A stretch of 39,892 nt of DNA from a virus. The notes beneath the pieces were generated by a model that had not been told where the DNA came from, made no database searches, and saw only the letters and a list, made by a program, of their open reading frames with translations. Numbering within the stretch: position 1 is the first letter of the stretch; the number at the start of each line of letters is the position of its first letter. The stretch is taken from the UHGV virus genome UHGV-0038300; one strand, written 5' to 3'. Below, one piece after another: positions 2,415 to 27,866 of the stretch. A program made the position numbers and the translations under genes.

Positions 2415-4955
2415 TCATTTTTTTACATTGCCATTTTCAATGGCGAAAATTCTCTCTTCCATATTATCAATTCTCTCCCAGCATTGCTGAATTGATTTAA
2501 CAATAGGTGGGATGAATTCATCGTAACCAAGTGAGTAAACATCATCCCCACCATTTTTCAAGTGATGCTGTAGCCCACCGAACTCAACACCTAATTTTTC
2601 ACACAGTTTCAATACGTCCTGTGCAATAAACCAGTGATGGTATCGTTGACGTTTTTTACTGCCGTCAGGAGTTTTCTGCACTACTTCAAGATATTTTTCT
2701 TCGACATTCTCAATAGCTGATACAGTAATTCCATCAACATCTCGCTCTACTTTTTTTGGTACAATTCTTGTTTTTTCAATAACATCAACATAATCATCAC
2801 GCATATCCCAGCGACCATCGACAGGACGAAGCCCAAGGATAAATTCAATCCCCAGCAAGGTATCTCGGATATCTGTTTTATCACGCGCATCAGATCTGTT
2901 TTGCACAGTTCCATATACATATGTCGTTGTGGAAGAATTGCCAAGCTGCACCTGGTTACTTCCAGACACCCTTGCATCATTGCCAACAGTTGTTGTGTTG
3001 GTAAGTGATGATGTGCTTTCCCCTGATTGAGTTAATCTACCTGAATTATGTCCAATAGCCGTGTTTAATGCGCCGGTTGTATTTGTGACAAGAGAGCCAG
3101 ACCCAATTGCAACGTTACTGCTTCCCGATGTTGTTCCTTTTAATGCCTGCTGTCCAACCGCAACATTATTATCACCCGTTGCTGCTATAAGTGCCATGTG
3201 ACCAATAGAAACGGTAAATGAACCTAGCGTTTGAGTTTCACCGCATGCCCCATAACCAATTACAACAACATTATCTGTAATTGTTGACTCGGTTGCCGCT
3301 CCAGCACCAATAACAACGCTTTCATTCCCGGCAAGATTCTTGCGCATTGCGAACATTCCAATGCCAACATTATCATGCCCAGTCCCTGTACCTGCTGCCT
3401 CCGCAGCACCAAGACAGTTTCCCGCTCTGTAGCCAACCATGGTGTTATTTGAACCAATAGAGAAGTCTCCGGAAAAAGAGCCTACGTATACACTATTAGA
3501 CTGAGAGTAATCTCCAGGATTTCCATTCGCCCGATATCCTACTGCAACTGTATAAATAGTATCTGGAGCCTCAGCCATGGCCTCAAAGCCAACTCCAACG
3601 TTATATCTACCGCCCTTAACTTTTTCTCCTGCACCAAGTCCGAAGAATGAGTTATAGCTCCCGGTTGTTAGCCACTCGCCAGCAACAGAACCTACAGCAG
3701 TGTTTCCTGTTCCAGTACATCGATACAAAGTCAGGAAGCCAACTCCGGTATTATTATTTCCTGAAATATTACTCATCAATGATTTTGACCCAATGGCAGT
3801 ATTGTTAACACCATCGGTCAGATCCTGTAACGCTCGCGGGCCAAATGCTGTATTATCGTAACCCTTTGGCGCTGTTGTTGGATCTGGTAACTCAGGGGTT
3901 AGTTTTTCACCACCACCACCATTGGCACAAAGATTGTAAGATCGAATAAATTCAGCCACTGGCCCAAGTTTTAAATAACCATTGGCAATATTAATTCTGA
4001 CACTTACATTAACTGAGCTACCAGGAGCTTCTATTGTCCTGTCATCAACCCAGGTAAAACTCTGTGGTATCCCGTCATAAGTTAATGTCACATCTCCTTT
4101 ATCATTATAATTATAGAACAATGTATAACGCTCATTTATAGATTCAGAACCTGATGATCCTCCTCTCCTCCACCACTCTGCATTATCAAAAATAAGTAAT
4201 CCCGGACCATAATATTTAGCTTTCTGCCCCAAAATCATAGGGCTTGATAATCTCCATACCCCCTCAGGAACATATATATTGCTACTTATTCTTTCAGCAT
4301 TATTAAAAGCAGTATCACATAGCTCGTCACCACCTTCTTTAGCTCCAAAGTCCAGAACACTGACAGTATCCCGCATCTTATCCTGGAACGTTCGATATAC
4401 TGCTCCAGAACCATACTGAATAAACCAACCAAAACCACCAACAACCCCGGCGATTGCAGCATCGACATAATTACGCATTGAGCGATTATTTACAGCGTCC
4501 TGCTCAAGTGATGGATCTGCAAGGTTAGAAATTCTGTTTTGCTTTGCATCGTAATATTTTGCAAGCAAAGATGGTTTCATCAATGCACGTCTGAACCATC
4601 CAAAACATTGCTGGATCAGCATCGTCAGATAGTCAAAGGCATCTTCATGCACCTCGGGGAAAAATTTTCCCTGATTACGAAGATCAGTCTCCTGCACCAC
4701 ATCAAGCACACGATCTATCGTAATTCGCCATCCAGCAGCAAGCGGCGACGGAAGAACAACAGAACCGCCACTATAAGTGCCCGCCCCAGTTACCGTATAA
4801 CCGGTATCCAGAACCAATTCTGTTACGTTCCCGTTCAGGTCAGACACCTGAACAACCAGGTCGGATTTTTTGAAAATACGGAAGGTGTACGGGAATGATG
4901 TCGTAATGCCGTTACCGGTGTATTCGTTGTGGTCAACTTCGGTTGAGACCGTCAT
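2415..4955 (-). CDS. Tail fibre with glycine-rich fibre repeats and a C-terminal peptidase S74 intramolecular chaperone domain
   Basis: N-terminal TGNGITTSFPYTF fibre-anchor-like motif, long G/N/S-rich repeats, and the C-terminal autoproteolysis motif ...NRSDARDKTDI... followed by a chaperone-like domain. Confidence 0.85.
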   Translation of the reverse strand: MTVSTEVDHNEYTGNGITTSFPYTFRIFKKSDLVVQVSDLNGNVTELVLDTGYTVTGAGTYSGGSVVLPSPLAAGWRITIDRVLDVVQETDLRNQGKFFPEVHEDAFDYLTMLIQQCFGWFRRALMKPSLLAKYYDAKQNRISNLADPSLEQDAVNNRSMRNYVDAAIAGVVGGFGWFIQYGSGAVYRTFQDKMRDTVSVLDFGAKEGGDELCDTAFNNAERISSNIYVPEGVWRLSSPMILGQKAKYYGPGLLIFDNAEWWRRGGSSGSESINERYTLFYNYNDKGDVTLTYDGIPQSFTWVDDRTIEAPGSSVNVSVRINIANGYLKLGPVAEFIRSYNLCANGGGGEKLTPELPDPTTAPKGYDNTAFGPRALQDLTDGVNNTAIGSKSLMSNISGNNNTGVGFLTLYRCTGTGNTAVGSVAGEWLTTGSYNSFFGLGAGEKVKGGRYNVGVGFEAMAEAPDTIYTVAVGYRANGNPGDYSQSNSVYVGSFSGDFSIGSNNTMVGYRAGNCLGAAEAAGTGTGHDNVGIGMFAMRKNLAGNESVVIGAGAATESTITDNVVVIGYGACGETQTLGSFTVSIGHMALIAATGDNNVAVGQQALKGTTSGSSNVAIGSGSLVTNTTGALNTAIGHNSGRLTQSGESTSSLTNTTTVGNDARVSGSNQVQLGNSSTTTYVYGTVQNRSDARDKTDIRDTLLGIEFILGLRPVDGRWDMRDDYVDVIEKTRIVPKKVERDVDGITVSAIENVEEKYLEVVQKTPDGSKKRQRYHHWFIAQDVLKLCEKLGVEFGGLQHHLKNGGDDVYSLGYDEFIPPIVKSIQQCWERIDNMEERIFAIENGNVKK

Positions 4956-7247: not shown

Positions 7248-7311
7248 CGGCGGCGGCACAGGGATGTGCCTTTAAAATAATCATTGGCGATGTGATGTAG
7301 ATTCGCGTAAT

Positions 7312-7328
7312 ATTACCTTAAAGGTAAA
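7312..7328. promoter_or_regulatory. 17-bp operator-like site ATTACC-TTAAA-GGTAAA
   Basis: Inverted repeat about 25 bp upstream of the 7354 start codon. Confidence 0.55.
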
Positions 7329-7353
7329 CCATGTGTTTACATGAGGAGGAGAT

Positions 7354-7563
7354 ATGGGATTTTGGTTCGCTCGTACAAAAACGAGGGATAATGCACCCAG
7401 CCCTCAGGCAAAAAATGCAGAAGTTCCGGCGTCAGCGCAGGTTAACAAGCGTGGTGGAGTATATATCTCATCACAGCAAATTTCTGAGCTTCCTGAGGTT
7501 AAGGAGATGCGTCGTCTCGCTGCTGCAATTGTTAAACAGGATCTTGCCACTGTAAGGAAGTAG
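7354..7563 (+). CDS. Small hypothetical protein (69 aa), first gene of a two-gene accessory module
   Basis: Strong RBS gaggaggag 6 nt before the ATG; its stop TAG overlaps the GTG start of the next ORF by one nucleotide. Confidence 0.55.
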   Translation: MGFWFARTKTRDNAPSPQAKNAEVPASAQVNKRGGVYISSQQISELPEVKEMRRLAAAIVKQDLATVRK

Positions 7564-8429
7564 TGTTGCTAGCTCTTCTAATTATCCCAATCCTGGTTAG
7601 CGGTTATATTATGATAACCGCTAACCAGTATCATTATTTCCGTTTATACCGACACGAAGGCCAGCTTCTTTATATGAAAGTAGCGGCACTAGGTACATAT
7701 TGCCTTGTTGCATCAGTAATAATTGCAGCCGCTATAAAATATAAATGGCCTGATTTTCACCTAGTTCACGATATGGTGGAAACTTTTAATGTAACATCAA
7801 AACCAGAAACAGATAGAATTTACATGTGGCTGCTTCTTCTCTCAGCCACATCCATTTGCTTCTCTTTGTGTTATGTGTCTGTTGTGTGGGTGAAAGATTT
7901 TCTTCTTGGTTGTTTTTATAAACGTGATATTTACGAGCAAAAAACAGAGGCAATGAAGGCCAGAGTACTGCGAAAAACTTACTCGCAAGGTTCTTTAGAC
8001 TTACTATTGCTTGATGCTATTGAATCGGATCCTAAACGACCAATGCTGATTACTTTATCATCAAACAAAGTGTATGTTGGAATAATAAATGGTTCTGGTG
8101 AACCAACGGAAAATCAGGGTCCGCATCAGCACATATCTTTTGTTCCTTTAATGTCAGGATACAGGAACAAAGAAAACTTATCTGTCACATTCACTAATGC
8201 TTATCCAGGAGAAATACAGGTCAAGCGGACTGCAGCAATAAGAGGAATTAGCAGAAAGAAAGTGCCAGGACTTGAGATCATGGTGTCTATTGACGAAATA
8301 AGTTATATATCATGGTTTGATTTTGAAGTATATAAAGCAACAAATAACAAAGTAGAATCCAGGGGGCACGTTATTCGTGTTACCAAAAATGGAAGAAATA
8401 TATATCAAAGAAATAGCAAAAAAGAATAG
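7563..8429 (+). CDS. Hypothetical membrane protein (3 N-terminal TM helices plus a ~170-aa soluble C-terminal domain); candidate exclusion/abortive-infection-type accessory protein
   Basis: Long ORF with hydrophobic helices at about aa 2-18, 35-58 and 85-110; markedly AT-rich compared with flanking phage genes; exact start (GTG 7563 or a nearby codon) uncertain. Confidence 0.6.
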   Translation: MLLALLIIPILVSGYIMITANQYHYFRLYRHEGQLLYMKVAALGTYCLVASVIIAAAIKYKWPDFHLVHDMVETFNVTSKPETDRIYMWLLLLSATSICFSLCYVSVVWVKDFLLGCFYKRDIYEQKTEAMKARVLRKTYSQGSLDLLLLDAIESDPKRPMLITLSSNKVYVGIINGSGEPTENQGPHQHISFVPLMSGYRNKENLSVTFTNAYPGEIQVKRTAAIRGISRKKVPGLEIMVSIDEISYISWFDFEVYKATNNKVESRGHVIRVTKNGRNIYQRNSKKE

Positions 8430-8521
8430 CCCGCGCTGCGGGCTTTTTTGTGGACGAAACAAAAGTCAGTGCTACACTCATTGACGCCACATTGAGGTGG
8501 CTTATAGATGGAAATTTCACA

Positions 8522-8683
8522 ATGAAAAAAGCATTTGCTGCACTGTTCGTTTTGTTGTCTCTGGTAGCTTCAACTCAGGCCTTTGCCGGTCGTTGTCAGC
8601 ACGACAGCGATACTGCTGCAGACGGCTCCCGCTGCGGTGGGCGTTCTGCGGATTCCCGCCCGGGCGGCGGTGGCATTCGTTAA
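8522..8683 (+). CDS. Small secreted peptide candidate (53 aa; signal peptide then a Gly/Arg/Cys-rich tail)
   Basis: MKKAFAALFVLLSLVASTQAFA|GRC... has a classic Sec signal peptide; sigma70-like -35 TTGACG (8481-8486) and -10 TATAGA (8503-8508) upstream; the RBS is weak. Confidence 0.4.
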   Translation: MKKAFAALFVLLSLVASTQAFAGRCQHDSDTAADGSRCGGRSADSRPGGGGIR

Positions 8684-8705
8684 AAACAAGGCCGCGAAAG
8701 CGGCC
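8682..8705 (-). terminator. Rho-independent terminator closing the late structural operon
   Basis: GC stem ggccgc-gaaa-gcggcc (8690-8705) followed, on the minus strand, by a T-run (complement of aaaaa 8682-8686). Confidence 0.6.
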
Positions 8706-8719
8706 TGTGACATGTCACG
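8706..8719. repeat. Palindrome tGTGACATGTCACg, copy 1 of 3
   Basis: Perfect 12-bp palindrome GTGACATGTCAC immediately abutting the terminator stem; same core at 25588-25601 and 27853-27866. Confidence 0.7.
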
Positions 8720-8725
8720 CTCACG

Positions 8726-8866
8726 TTATGACAAGCCTATGTACCCTGCTACACCAGATAATATCAAAATAACTGCAACAGCAAATTCACCATCATCAAT
8801 GATACATTTACGGTTCATAACGCCAAGTGCAACAAGCGCAAACACAACAAGAATAAAAGCAATCAT
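8726..8866 (-). CDS. Small hydrophobic protein (46 aa, two predicted TM segments), not in the supplied ORF track
   Basis: Manual translation MIAFILVVFALVALGVMNRKCIIDDGEFAVAVILILSGVAGYIGLS*; RBS aaggatga before the ATG; lies between the last ejection-protein gene and the terminator. Confidence 0.4.
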   Translation of the reverse strand: MIAFILVVFALVALGVMNRKCIIDDGEFAVAVILILSGVAGYIGLS

Positions 8867-8875
8867 TTCTCATCC

Positions 8876-11350
8876 TTATTGCGGAGTGACATCCTGAGGT
8901 CGCCACCAGTATGTCTGGTTAAACTCTTTCTTCGAACGTTGCTCCATTTTACGCAAATAACCTGGTGAAAAATACTCCTGCATCTGGTTAAAGATCATGT
9001 GATCGAGAGCCGCCTTTAAGTACCAGAGATTCGCACCTGGCATCAGACCTTTCCCCAGCTTGACCAGATCACCACCAGTCTGCTCATTCTTCCCTTCCAC
9101 AGCATTTAACGGTATGCCCTGAGCAATCTTCACTACGTCATCAACCAGACCAGCTACCGGGCCAAGCATCGACGCCAGCGCGCCGCTTCCGTACCTAGTG
9201 TGATCTGACAATAAAAAGTCACCGTAAAGGCCAAGACCACCACCTTTCAGTAGAGCACCAAGCCAAAATTTAGCAGCATCTTCTCCTGTCATCTCACGAG
9301 GATTACGACCAGACGCAAGGTCGTTAAGTTGCTGCGACAAAGCGCCAAGAATGGTCGTACTGGCAATAAACGTCGCAATATATGCCGCACGCCCACCAGC
9401 AGACGGCATACCCATAGCGCGTGACCAGTGACGCATAACCACCGAGATAGGGAACGATTTAAACAGGAAAACACTTCTCGTTAATTCACCTTTCCATGTT
9501 CCACGCTGAATACCAGAACCGGTTATCAGTTGCTCACGTGCTCCCGGTGTAATAACAGCCATATCAACTTCTTCAGTTACGGCACCGAGCAGTTTACGCA
9601 TTGCCTCAAATTTCACGCGTTCAGACTCACCAAGATGTTTAACTGCTGAATCAGGGATACGCATAATGCTTTCCGGTGTCAGCATCGTATTATTACCGTT
9701 CCCCCAGTCCTCCTGTTGCGCCAGCTTCCATACGCTCCAGTCTGTGTCAGTAATCCCTTTGCTTTTCAGGATACGAAAATCAGAGTCATCGAGGCTACGA
9801 AGGTCTGGTGTCCGTGACACTACTTCTCCCAGGCTTCCCATCATGGTTACGCCATAGGCGCGCTTGTGCGCATCTGACCATGCTGTAAGCCCACTGGCAC
9901 GCATTACCGCCGTTGCCGCCCAACGAGACACTGACGGCCCCATATTATCCATCGCCCAGCGGTTAACGCTGCCAAGTAGAGATTCCATCGCCAGACCAGC
10001 GCGGCGCGCCCGCGCAAGTTCTGTACGGTTCGTTGGGTCCATAGCTTCAAGCTGGTTGCGGAATAACTGGTTCATTGGAAGGTTGGTAACCTTCGCAGAC
10101 AGATACATGGTTCCAAGATCAGAGAACGATGACAGCAACGCGGATCCGAGTCTGCTGGCAACCAGCCAGTTGCGGATATTGTCAGACCATCGCGCGATGT
10201 GCGGATTCGCTACAGGCTGTGTCTTTCCGGAAATAAAGTTGTACAGATTCTCTGTGTTGTTCGCCAGCCGCTCGACTTTACCGGTTTTACTCGGGTTAGC
10301 TGTTGCCGTTTCTGCCTTAACCTGATCAAGAAGGGAGCGGAAAACATGATCGGGGTTTGGACCATATGTTTCCACCAGAGCAATATCTTTACTGATACCT
10401 TCCAGGTGACCGACCATGATTTCCCATAGAGAGCGATCACCATAAAGTTGTTGATATTGGAGATAGGAATCTGCATCTTTGAAATGTATCTGTCGTGATG
10501 CATTACCACGGTTAGCACGTGCGCCGGAAATTCGCATTCCGGTATCAGTAAGCTTATTCAGCCCACCAGTAGCGATCGTGTTATAAGCCTCTCCAAGAAA
10601 TGCAGACAACTCGGCATCGTTCATCAGTTGTCCATCGGCTCGGGTATAATATTTGCGATCCAGCTTACCTATAACATCGCCAACCCACTTATCCTTTGAT
10701 ACCGCCCCAACCTTTTCCATAGAATGATGTTGAGGGATCCCCCAGTTTTCGAGATAGCCAATGTCCCCACCAGCATCATTAAACCGGCGGCGCAGCAGCT
10801 CTGTAACTTCTCTCCACGCCTTAGCACCTTTTCTTGCTTTAGCATTGCCAGTATTTTGCCCTCGCATTTCATATACCAGGTCACGCACGCCAGCTTCATC
10901 TTCAAACAGGCCAAAAAAGCGAGGATCAACTGCTTCAAATGCCTCTTGCAATTGACTCAATGCATAATCACGAGTGGCTTTTGTTCTGGACTCAACAGAG
11001 AGGAAATTCGATTTACCGTCTGCATTAAAAGCAATAGTACGGTTAAGAGCGCCAAGTTTCCCATCAGCCCCTTGATAGCTATTGATAAATTTATCCAATC
11101 TCTGACGTGCGGCTATAGTGAGGGCCACACGACGTTTCTTTAATGCCGCTTCTCGCTGTAATTCTTCAGATGCCAATTGTGCTGCACGATATAGCCGCTC
11201 TGATTCGGAAAGTTGTCTCCACGACATCGGGTCATCACGAGCAATGGAGCGCATATTTCGATAAATGCGGTCTTCAATGTTCTGTATTTCTCGCGCCGTT
11301 AACGTGCGCTGCGCCGCCTGCTGGACCGCTTGTATACATTCCTGTCTCAT
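8876..11350 (-). CDS. Large internal virion / DNA-ejection protein (gp16-position in a T7-like order)
   Basis: 824-aa ORF at the end of the structural operon after two other large ejection-type proteins; no enzymatic motif recognised. Confidence 0.6.
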   Translation of the reverse strand: MRQECIQAVQQAAQRTLTAREIQNIEDRIYRNMRSIARDDPMSWRQLSESERLYRAAQLASEELQREAALKKRRVALTIAARQRLDKFINSYQGADGKLGALNRTIAFNADGKSNFLSVESRTKATRDYALSQLQEAFEAVDPRFFGLFEDEAGVRDLVYEMRGQNTGNAKARKGAKAWREVTELLRRRFNDAGGDIGYLENWGIPQHHSMEKVGAVSKDKWVGDVIGKLDRKYYTRADGQLMNDAELSAFLGEAYNTIATGGLNKLTDTGMRISGARANRGNASRQIHFKDADSYLQYQQLYGDRSLWEIMVGHLEGISKDIALVETYGPNPDHVFRSLLDQVKAETATANPSKTGKVERLANNTENLYNFISGKTQPVANPHIARWSDNIRNWLVASRLGSALLSSFSDLGTMYLSAKVTNLPMNQLFRNQLEAMDPTNRTELARARRAGLAMESLLGSVNRWAMDNMGPSVSRWAATAVMRASGLTAWSDAHKRAYGVTMMGSLGEVVSRTPDLRSLDDSDFRILKSKGITDTDWSVWKLAQQEDWGNGNNTMLTPESIMRIPDSAVKHLGESERVKFEAMRKLLGAVTEEVDMAVITPGAREQLITGSGIQRGTWKGELTRSVFLFKSFPISVVMRHWSRAMGMPSAGGRAAYIATFIASTTILGALSQQLNDLASGRNPREMTGEDAAKFWLGALLKGGGLGLYGDFLLSDHTRYGSGALASMLGPVAGLVDDVVKIAQGIPLNAVEGKNEQTGGDLVKLGKGLMPGANLWYLKAALDHMIFNQMQEYFSPGYLRKMEQRSKKEFNQTYWWRPQDVTPQ

Positions 11351-22664: not shown

Positions 22665-22957
22665 TCCTGTTCACTGGCCTCTTTGGCCATCTTCAAATAC
22701 TGTTCAGGGCAATGCGCCATAACGCGCTGAAACAGTTCCAGCGCCAGATTGCGTTGCCCCTCATTAAATGCCATTGCCATAGCGTCCATCGGTGAGATAG
22801 CGGAAAACACACGGCCTTTCTCCAGCACAGACCAGACAACGCGACGCCCCTGTTCACTGCTCATGACAAAGCGAATGTCATCAATTTCACGCTGTGCCAT
22901 GTCACGTTGCGTACGGGCGTTTTCTTCTTTCAGTTGATCGTCTTCGTAATCTGTCAT
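22661..22957 (-). CDS. Small hypothetical head protein
   Basis: 98-aa ORF overlapping the portal stop and scaffold start. Confidence 0.45.
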   Translation of the reverse strand: MTDYEDDQLKEENARTQRDMAQREIDDIRFVMSSEQGRRVVWSVLEKGRVFSAISPMDAMAMAFNEGQRNLALELFQRVMAHCPEQYLKMAKEASEQE

Positions 22958-25587: not shown

Positions 25588-25601
25588 CGTGACATGTCAC
25601 A
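25588..25601. repeat. Palindrome cGTGACATGTCACa, copy 2 of 3
   Basis: Same 12-bp core as at 8706-8719 and 27853-27866; directly next to a terminator hairpin. Confidence 0.7.
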
Positions 25602-27852: not shown

Positions 27853-27866
27853 CGTGACATGTCACA
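27853..27866. repeat. Palindrome cGTGACATGTCACa, copy 3 of 3
   Basis: Same core as the other two copies; overlaps the stop codon of the 27862-28203 gene, about 40 bp upstream of the late-leader hairpin. Confidence 0.7.

Follow-up and report, generated by a model that had tools for sequence, protein, structure and literature searches.

A short gene under purifying selection at the border of a Uetakevirus cargo slot and its predicted exported peptide

Coding evidence and predicted export

The window (i.e. the whole 39,892-nucleotide stretch of DNA that was analysed) belongs to an epsilon15/phiV10-like (Uetakevirus) temperate podophage of E. coli and is near HEMP4 and phiv142-3. It contains a short ORF for which a sequence-only reading had proposed a secreted peptide on coding evidence that was described as thin, raising the questions of whether this frame is a gene and what its product might do. 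The ORF was found on the plus strand, as claimed, and extends from an ATG at 8522 to a TAA ending at 8683 (53 amino acids plus stop); the start at 8430 given in the sequence-only reading takes in upstream regulatory DNA. The precursor (MKKAFAALFVLLSLVASTQAFAGRCQHDSDTAADGSRCGGRSADSRPGGGGIR) divides into MKKAFAALFVLLSLVASTQAFA and GRCQHDSDTAADGSRCGGRSADSRPGGGGIR. The former is a predicted signal peptide (residues 1–22; 8522–8587, plus strand) with a predicted signal peptidase I cut after Ala22, and the latter is the 31-residue mature peptide, encoded with its stop by 8588–8683 on the same strand and containing an invariant cysteine pair, Cys25/Cys38.

The signal-peptide layout described earlier was borne out, with a positively-charged n-region (MKK, two Lys), a hydrophobic core of 13 residues (AFAALFVLLSLVA; mean Kyte-Doolittle value of 2.74) and an A-F-A sequence before Gly23 that places small residues at -3 and -1. 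These are the features by which Sec export and signal peptidase I cleavage are judged (i.e. a positive n-region, an h-region of 10–15 residues and small residues at -3 and -1). When a crude signal-peptide filter was applied to the 511 Met-initiated stretches of at least 40 amino acids in the window, only two passed, one of which was this ORF. A lipoprotein reading was dropped, as the lipobox [LVI][ASTVI][GAS]C with Cys at +1 is absent from the window peptide, in which F-A-G-R-C puts the Cys at +3. Also dropped was a 77-amino-acid version starting at a GTG (PHROG 3117), whose extension overlies the predicted promoter and whose frame has a stop three codons upstream of the ATG in Klebsiella.

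The composition of the mature part agreed with the earlier description of a Gly/Arg-rich sequence with two Cys residues. Its 31 residues include 8 Gly, 5 Arg, 4 Asp and 2 Cys, yet it is not strongly cationic (net charge +1), and it is neither hydrophobic nor amphipathic. The reported GC-richer patch was also present, with values of 57.4% for the ORF and 68.8% for its mature part as compared to 48.4% for the window and 36.9% for the upstream 288-amino-acid ORF. The GC excess lies at codon positions 1 and 2 and is due to Gly, Arg, Ala and Pro codons (i.e. to amino-acid composition). An AlphaFold model of the peptide reached only moderate confidence (pLDDT 73).

Selection on the frame was examined in 16 enterobacterial orthologues, drawn from Escherichia, Klebsiella, Kluyvera, Buttiauxella, Enterobacter, Franconibacter, Pantoea, Pectobacterium, Rahnella, Rouxiella and Tolumonas. 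Within a 25-codon core, mean pS was 0.70 as compared to a mean pN of 0.105, and variation was observed at the third position of all 25 codons, at 10 first positions and at 8 second positions. Purifying selection has thus preserved the reading frame over a range that extends from Escherichia to Pectobacterium and Rahnella. Conservation of the frame in relatives and a dN/dS-type comparison, the two sequence checks suggested with the earlier reading, both came out in favour of a gene, and homologues were found as far as alphaproteobacteria and cyanobacteria. The ribosome-binding site, which had been the reason for caution, is indeed weak, with GGAAA (8510–8514) being the only element in range of the ATG. 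Shine-Dalgarno sequences are similarly weak in the other enterobacterial copies but strong (GGAGG or GGGGG) in the alphaproteobacterial members. The view that the coding evidence is thin is overturned by these strong sites and by the selection on the frame.

The signal peptide drifts in sequence among family members whilst retaining its hydrophobic character, and the mature part is almost invariant, a pattern expected of an exported protein with a functional mature part. The Ala at -1 of the predicted cut is conserved in at least 90% of the family, and residues C25, A32, G35, S36, R37, C38, G39, R41, R46, G48 and G49 are invariant. We are therefore highly confident that 8522–8683 is a genuine gene and that its peptide is exported. 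The alternatives of a chance ORF, or of a non-coding RNA conserved in place of a protein, would fit the weak Shine-Dalgarno sequence, the shortness of the ORF and the lack of a promoter call by a consensus scan but are extremely improbable, as the protein is conserved despite saturation at synonymous sites, the codon-position pattern already refutes them, the homologues in other phyla were found at the protein level only and an Rfam search gave sub-threshold chance matches with none above threshold.

Expression signals and limits of the cassette

The sequence-only reading had given the peptide its own sigma70-like promoter hexamers, by which it most likely meant TTGACG (8481–8486) and TATAGA (8503–8508), separated by 16 nt. 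These hexamers are present; the -10 lacks the final T, however, and the pair is not conserved in relatives, for which reason it was dropped as the main promoter. A consensus promoter scan of the plus strand between 8430 and 8521 called nothing. A different pair is conserved instead. An extended -10 element, TGcTACACT (8470–8478, plus strand; hexamer TACACT at 8473–8478), is the best-supported promoter element and scores under the threshold of the consensus scan. It is preceded at a distance of 16 nt by a putative -35-like hexamer, TGGACG (8451–8456, plus strand; four of six consensus positions), and TGGAYG or TGGTAA occurs at the same position in relatives from Klebsiella and Rahnella. When 15 orthologous upstream regions (genera or loci) were aligned, the T, A and final T of the -10 hexamer were invariant in all 15, with TACAAT, TACCCT, TAAACT, TATGAT, TACGCT, TATTGT, TAATGT and TACTTT as the variants observed, and the distance from the hexamer to the ATG was 39–47 nt throughout.

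Immediately downstream is a stem-loop, GCCAC-ATTGAG-GTGGC (8486–8501, plus strand), with a predicted folding energy of -8.4 kcal/mol. A hairpin is kept at this position, 3–8 nt past the -10 hexamer, in 13–14 of the 15 relatives, with stems that differ between them (e.g. GCCGC/GCGGC, GCCGTC/GATGGC and TTGCC/GGCAA). Hairpins at the 5' terminus are known to protect mRNAs from decay in E. coli. Retention of position with changes of stem sequence fits such a protective element, and the stem-loop, lying at the predicted 5' end of the mRNA, probably stabilizes the transcript. The alphaproteobacterial members also carry hairpins of their own; EcfG general-stress promoters were searched for upstream of 28 of these members and none was found.

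A five-codon upstream ORF (MEISQ and a stop; 8508–8525, plus strand) has a TGA that overlaps the ATG of the peptide (as ATGA) and is preceded by GAGGTG at 8494–8499. Translational coupling through this ORF was considered and dropped; neither its frame nor its length is kept in Klebsiella or Enterobacter relatives, and it is probably incidental because the frame is not conserved.

The gene and its signals are enclosed by hairpins. On the left, a bidirectional terminator consisting of a hairpin with T-runs (8428–8444), called on both strands and also predicted as a fold, ends the upstream 288-amino-acid ORF and forms the left edge of the conserved segment. On the right, a GC-rich hairpin (GGCCGCGAAAGCGGCC; 8689–8706; z -3.3) was called as a terminator on the minus strand only and is common to the peptide unit and the convergent minus-strand late operon. 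This hairpin is strong; within the window it has a T-run on the minus strand and none on the strand of the peptide, whereas in relatives from other contexts the strand of the peptide does carry a T-run at the downstream hairpin. A perfect 12-bp palindrome (GTGACATGTCAC; 8707–8718) marks the right edge. The order within the cassette (~8428–8718) is therefore upstream terminator, predicted promoter, 5' hairpin, CDS, hairpin and palindrome.

The limits of the cassette were examined by comparison of genomes. A query spanning 7300–9600 matched 562 of 5426 E. coli genomes searched, with edges of similarity at ~8421–8444 and ~8708–8721, and the whole 7300–9600 arrangement was shared by only nine of these. 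The cassette by itself (query 8430–8720) had a match in 538 of the 5426 complete genomes (~10%). For 79 loci (i.e. 78 prophage contigs encoding an identical peptide, and the window), 500 nt on each side were also compared. The cassette formed one cluster and was identical in E. coli epsilon15/phiV10-like prophages, whereas the left flanks fell into at least 10 unrelated clusters and the right flanks into at least 11. Genes in the left slot included those for a YafO-family toxin, DUF2335 and DUF4760 proteins, the 288-amino-acid membrane protein of the window and others. Klebsiella uetakeviruses hold the peptide gene at the same position, and it is stable in the uetakeviruses of both hosts. E. 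coli uetakevirus prophages that are otherwise nearly identical differ strongly in the slot to the left (~7300–8429), a hypervariable region with the appearance of a terminator-bounded hotspot for cargo or defence genes. Thus the earlier placement of the gene in an accessory island was correct insofar as this is a self-contained accessory gene for a predicted exported small peptide, but what stays constant among the E. coli prophages is the peptide cassette, and what varies is the left slot.

In phiV10 (2990–3030, as compared to 8661–8720 of the window), the stop of a BRO-domain gene is joined to the last 22 nt of the ORF and the hairpin, and the annotated 29-amino-acid PhiV10p22 ends exactly at this junction, which is a deletion scar. 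Other E. coli genomes likewise hold a 3' remnant only. As phiV10 retains just these 22 nt, the peptide gene is dispensable for lytic growth. Morons are promoter–gene–terminator units inserted between conserved phage genes and were defined for HK97/HK022. The cassette resembles them in consisting of one small gene that has a conserved -10 of its own, flanking hairpins and a base composition unlike its surroundings, in being on the strand opposite to the late operon, and in being absent, or reduced to 22 nt, in the close relative phiV10, whose junction also places the gene between genes adjacent in a related phage. It differs in that the cassette is the constant element of the E. coli uetakevirus prophages next to a varying slot, and in that the downstream hairpin in the window is a better terminator for the convergent late operon than for the moron. 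The cassette marks a fixed border of the uetakevirus cargo hotspot and is thereby useful for mining defence or toxin genes.

A family of mini-domains and possible roles of the peptide

The gene is already catalogued in databases and has the architecture of an ordinary moron. A full-length match (residues 1–53 of 53; E 2.3e-40) was obtained to PHROG 14503, which has the category "moron", and identical or near-identical 53-amino-acid entries include TL-2011b gp43, phiv142-3 Orf11, WP_000708858.1 and UniProt A0A0A1A7U0. NCBI and UniRef use the name "transmembrane anchored protein" and RefSeq has "hypothetical"; the entries of PHROG 14503, PHROG 3117 and NCBI are the same protein and carry a name but no function. 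In the paper on phiv142-3, the only experimental study of a phage carrying the gene, orf6, orf10, orf24, orf40 and orf41 were deleted, and a qRT-PCR survey, the sole one of transcripts, lists just the 14 serum-induced prophage genes; these do not include Orf11, on which the paper gives no data. Comparisons of the peptide with Pfam, NCBIfam, PADLOC, PDB sequences and folds gave no match; NCBIfam matches to HxsA3 and MarB were far under the cut-offs and confined to the signal region, and a literature search on motif, accession and product name found nothing. What is new is how strong the coding evidence proves to be, the conservation of the expression signals, the role of the cassette as a fixed hotspot border and the breadth of the family across phyla. 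A doubtful short ORF has hence become a securely coding, probably exported peptide gene.

Profile searches collected at least 790 clusters at 90% identity (610 at 50% identity) from Proteobacteria, cyanobacteria and other Gram-negatives. The members share a core of ~25 residues with two Cys, C-x4-D-[RT]-A-[SA]-D-G-S-R-C-G-x-R-[SA]-x3-R-P-G-G, or in short form C-x4-D-x-A-x-DGSRCG-x-R-x4-RPGG. A scan of one genome per species gave 57 loci, of which those outside Enterobacterales include Mesorhizobium, Rhizobium, Agrobacterium, Bradyrhizobium, Devosia, Methylobacterium, Rhodoferax, Vibrio, Bacteriovorax, Polyangiaceae and several cyanobacteria. In every form the motif is preceded by an export or anchoring element (signal peptide, lipobox or membrane anchor), and tandem copies also occur. 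It is therefore an extracytoplasmic mini-domain, of which, to judge by these architectures, the phage peptide is the minimal, free form. Cyanobacterial members carry a lipobox (I-T-S-C, V-T-S-C or L-T-A-C) further upstream, and a longer architecture comprises a signal or lipobox, the motif, RNPDTDW, a membrane helix, a low-complexity linker and a cytoplasmic domain. This longer form was seen in aquatic-metagenome proteins of 210–290 amino acids. Its cytoplasmic domain was modelled by AlphaFold as a 5-helix bundle (pLDDT above 93) and had no Pfam or PDB match, so that domain fusion gave no functional clue. An all-against-all comparison of the ORFs flanking the 57 loci found no neighbour shared across taxa, indicating that the peptide acts alone. 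For this large family, which lacks a Pfam model, a solved structure and any literature, the peptide represents the simplest form; at 31 residues it is easily synthesized and suited to NMR, and so offers a cheap entry.

These observations can be assembled into a model. A sigma70-type promoter with its -10 at 8473–8478 would start an mRNA of ~225 nt (promoter to hairpin) that opens with the protective stem-loop and would be translated from the ATG at 8522 via the weak ribosome-binding site. The 53-residue product would be exported by Sec and cut after Ala22, releasing a 31-residue periplasmic peptide that we infer to be closed by a Cys25–Cys38 disulfide. Invariant Asp and Arg residues may then bind a conserved envelope or periplasmic ligand and thereby, speculatively, alter a property of the lysogen envelope or exclude incoming phages. 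The description of 8428–8718 as an autonomous accessory transcription unit of a Uetakevirus (i.e. a moron) for an exported, ligand-binding periplasmic peptide appears reasonably probable when taken as a whole, and a periplasmic ligand-binding peptide carried as lysogenic-conversion or exclusion cargo is the most likely role that the sequence suggests. Ligand binding as the mode of action is put forward tentatively. A broader proposal, viewed with somewhat more doubt, is that the motif might be an undescribed extracytoplasmic binding domain, present across Gram-negative phyla, with an Excalibur-like layout and a different conserved envelope ligand (e.g. a phosphorylated lipid or cell-wall intermediate located on the periplasmic side of the inner membrane), and that a free-standing copy was captured by enterobacterial uetakeviruses and is secreted to occupy this ligand. 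If so, the copy secreted by the phage would change envelope behaviour or block the entry of other phages.

Small periplasmic or lipoprotein exclusion factors are known from several phages (e.g. T4 Spackle, T5 Llp, phi80 Cor and TP-J34 Ltp), and the peptide is similar to them in being a small Sec-exported product that would function outside the cytoplasm and is dispensable for virion production. It could accordingly be asked whether the peptide is a superinfection-exclusion factor that blocks ejection or cell-wall-penetrating proteins in the manner of Spackle. The presence of the gene in the accessory cluster of a temperate phage, adjoining a hypervariable slot with toxin-like and membrane proteins, is in keeping with this role, as are its dispensability for lytic growth and its stable retention at one position in E. 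coli and Klebsiella uetakeviruses. Nevertheless, the peptide has no sequence or structural relationship to these factors; a single family member matched Spackle (E 0.065), and did so via the signal region. The PADLOC anti-phage defence profiles had no match to the peptide or its neighbours. Furthermore, the family is mostly non-phage outside Enterobacterales, with the majority of its members being chromosomal in alphaproteobacteria and cyanobacteria with phage genes absent nearby. Pectobacterium copies are in another prophage type, and a Mesorhizobium copy has no phage genes nearby. The 303–305 viral-contig matches were mostly enterobacterial prophages, with only six of the 80 listed being of non-enterobacterial types; the family as a whole thus gives no reason to assume a phage-specific role such as exclusion. 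Specific action as an exclusion factor is considered rather unlikely.

A somewhat less likely explanation is that the N-terminus is not cleaved, leaving a membrane-tethered peptide (N-in, C-out) that exposes its motif on the periplasmic side of the inner membrane. The name given by NCBI and UniRef implies such an anchor, whereas the window sequence predicts a cleaved signal peptide. Other members of the family are indeed anchored, either through a lipobox (in cyanobacteria) or through a membrane helix that immediately follows the motif, so that action at the membrane surface is normal for this domain. In the anchored relatives, however, the helix follows the motif and a separate, cleavable-looking signal precedes it. 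The hydrophobic core of the window peptide has 13 residues only and is followed by a canonical A-x-A site at which the -1 Ala is, as noted above, highly conserved. These features argue for the cleaved, periplasmic peptide.

The possibility that the motif forms an Excalibur-like loop around a divalent cation, and so buffers or senses periplasmic calcium, appears improbable. The Excalibur domain is an extracellular Ca2+-binding domain with the motif DxDxDGxxCE and two conserved Cys whose disulfide is joined to the binding loop, and an NMR structure is available for that of CbpL (5J8T; PMC5137146). The likeness to the peptide is evident in the D-x-A-x-D-G-S-R-C-G sequence, which resembles D-x-D-x-D-G-x-x-C-E and shares with it the final D-G-x-x-C, in the tiny size and extracytoplasmic location of both domains, in their two absolutely conserved Cys (C25 and C38 in the peptide family, probably joined as a disulfide) and in their occurrence either alone or fused to other modules. 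Cys spacing is, by contrast, shorter in the peptide family, and the DxDxDGxxCE motif is itself absent from it, with Ca2+ ligands lost at two of the four positions, which are occupied by the invariant Ala32 and Gly39. These substitutions indicate that the peptide is not a member of the Excalibur family, and a canonical Ca2+ site is unlikely on this basis. There was no match between PF05901 and the peptide at E up to 1, no fold match and nothing at E up to 10 in a profile search of PDB sequences. The library searched presumably includes the 5J8T chain.

Least probable of the roles considered, and very improbable in itself, is that of a secreted toxin, bacteriocin or modified-peptide precursor. 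A small Cys-containing pre-peptide on a mobile element would suit such a role, and the heat-stable enterotoxins of E. coli are likewise Sec-exported disulfide peptides. Against this, no maturation, export or immunity gene is conserved alongside the gene in the 57 loci, a mature part with a net charge of +1 and neither hydrophobic nor amphipathic character is ill suited to it, anchored and tandem forms exist, and the near-identity of sequence across phyla is unlike that of toxin or bacteriocin families. A periplasmic peptide that may bind a conserved ligand continues to be the preferred reading.

The palindrome and elements adjoining the cassette

The 12-bp palindrome at the right edge is conserved between phiV10 and the loci of E. 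coli, Klebsiella, Kluyvera and Buttiauxella. Three exact copies were found in the window (8707–8718, 25589–25600 and 27854–27865), all intergenic, as compared to ~0.005 expected by chance, and the palindrome may be a protein-binding site (e.g. for a late regulator). The first copy abuts the cassette hairpin; the others are located beside a hairpin downstream of a 491-amino-acid ORF and a short way upstream of the gene that opens the minus-strand late operon. A copy with one mismatch is present at 22894–22905.

Two further elements were noted on either side of the cassette. At the 5' end of the 288-amino-acid ORF in the left slot, a perfect 15-bp stem with a 6-nt loop (7593–7628, plus strand; -24.7 kcal/mol, z -6.9) holds in its loop an ATG (7611) at which the homologue in a related prophage starts. 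This structure may act as a translational gate on the AT-rich membrane-protein cargo gene (PHROG 3630). To the right, a 46-amino-acid ORF with two hydrophobic segments (8726–8866, minus strand; PHROG 7892), annotated in phiV10 as p21, a 'putative integral membrane protein', lies beside the cassette as the last ORF of the late structural operon and has a 98-amino-acid ORF in its place in other prophages.
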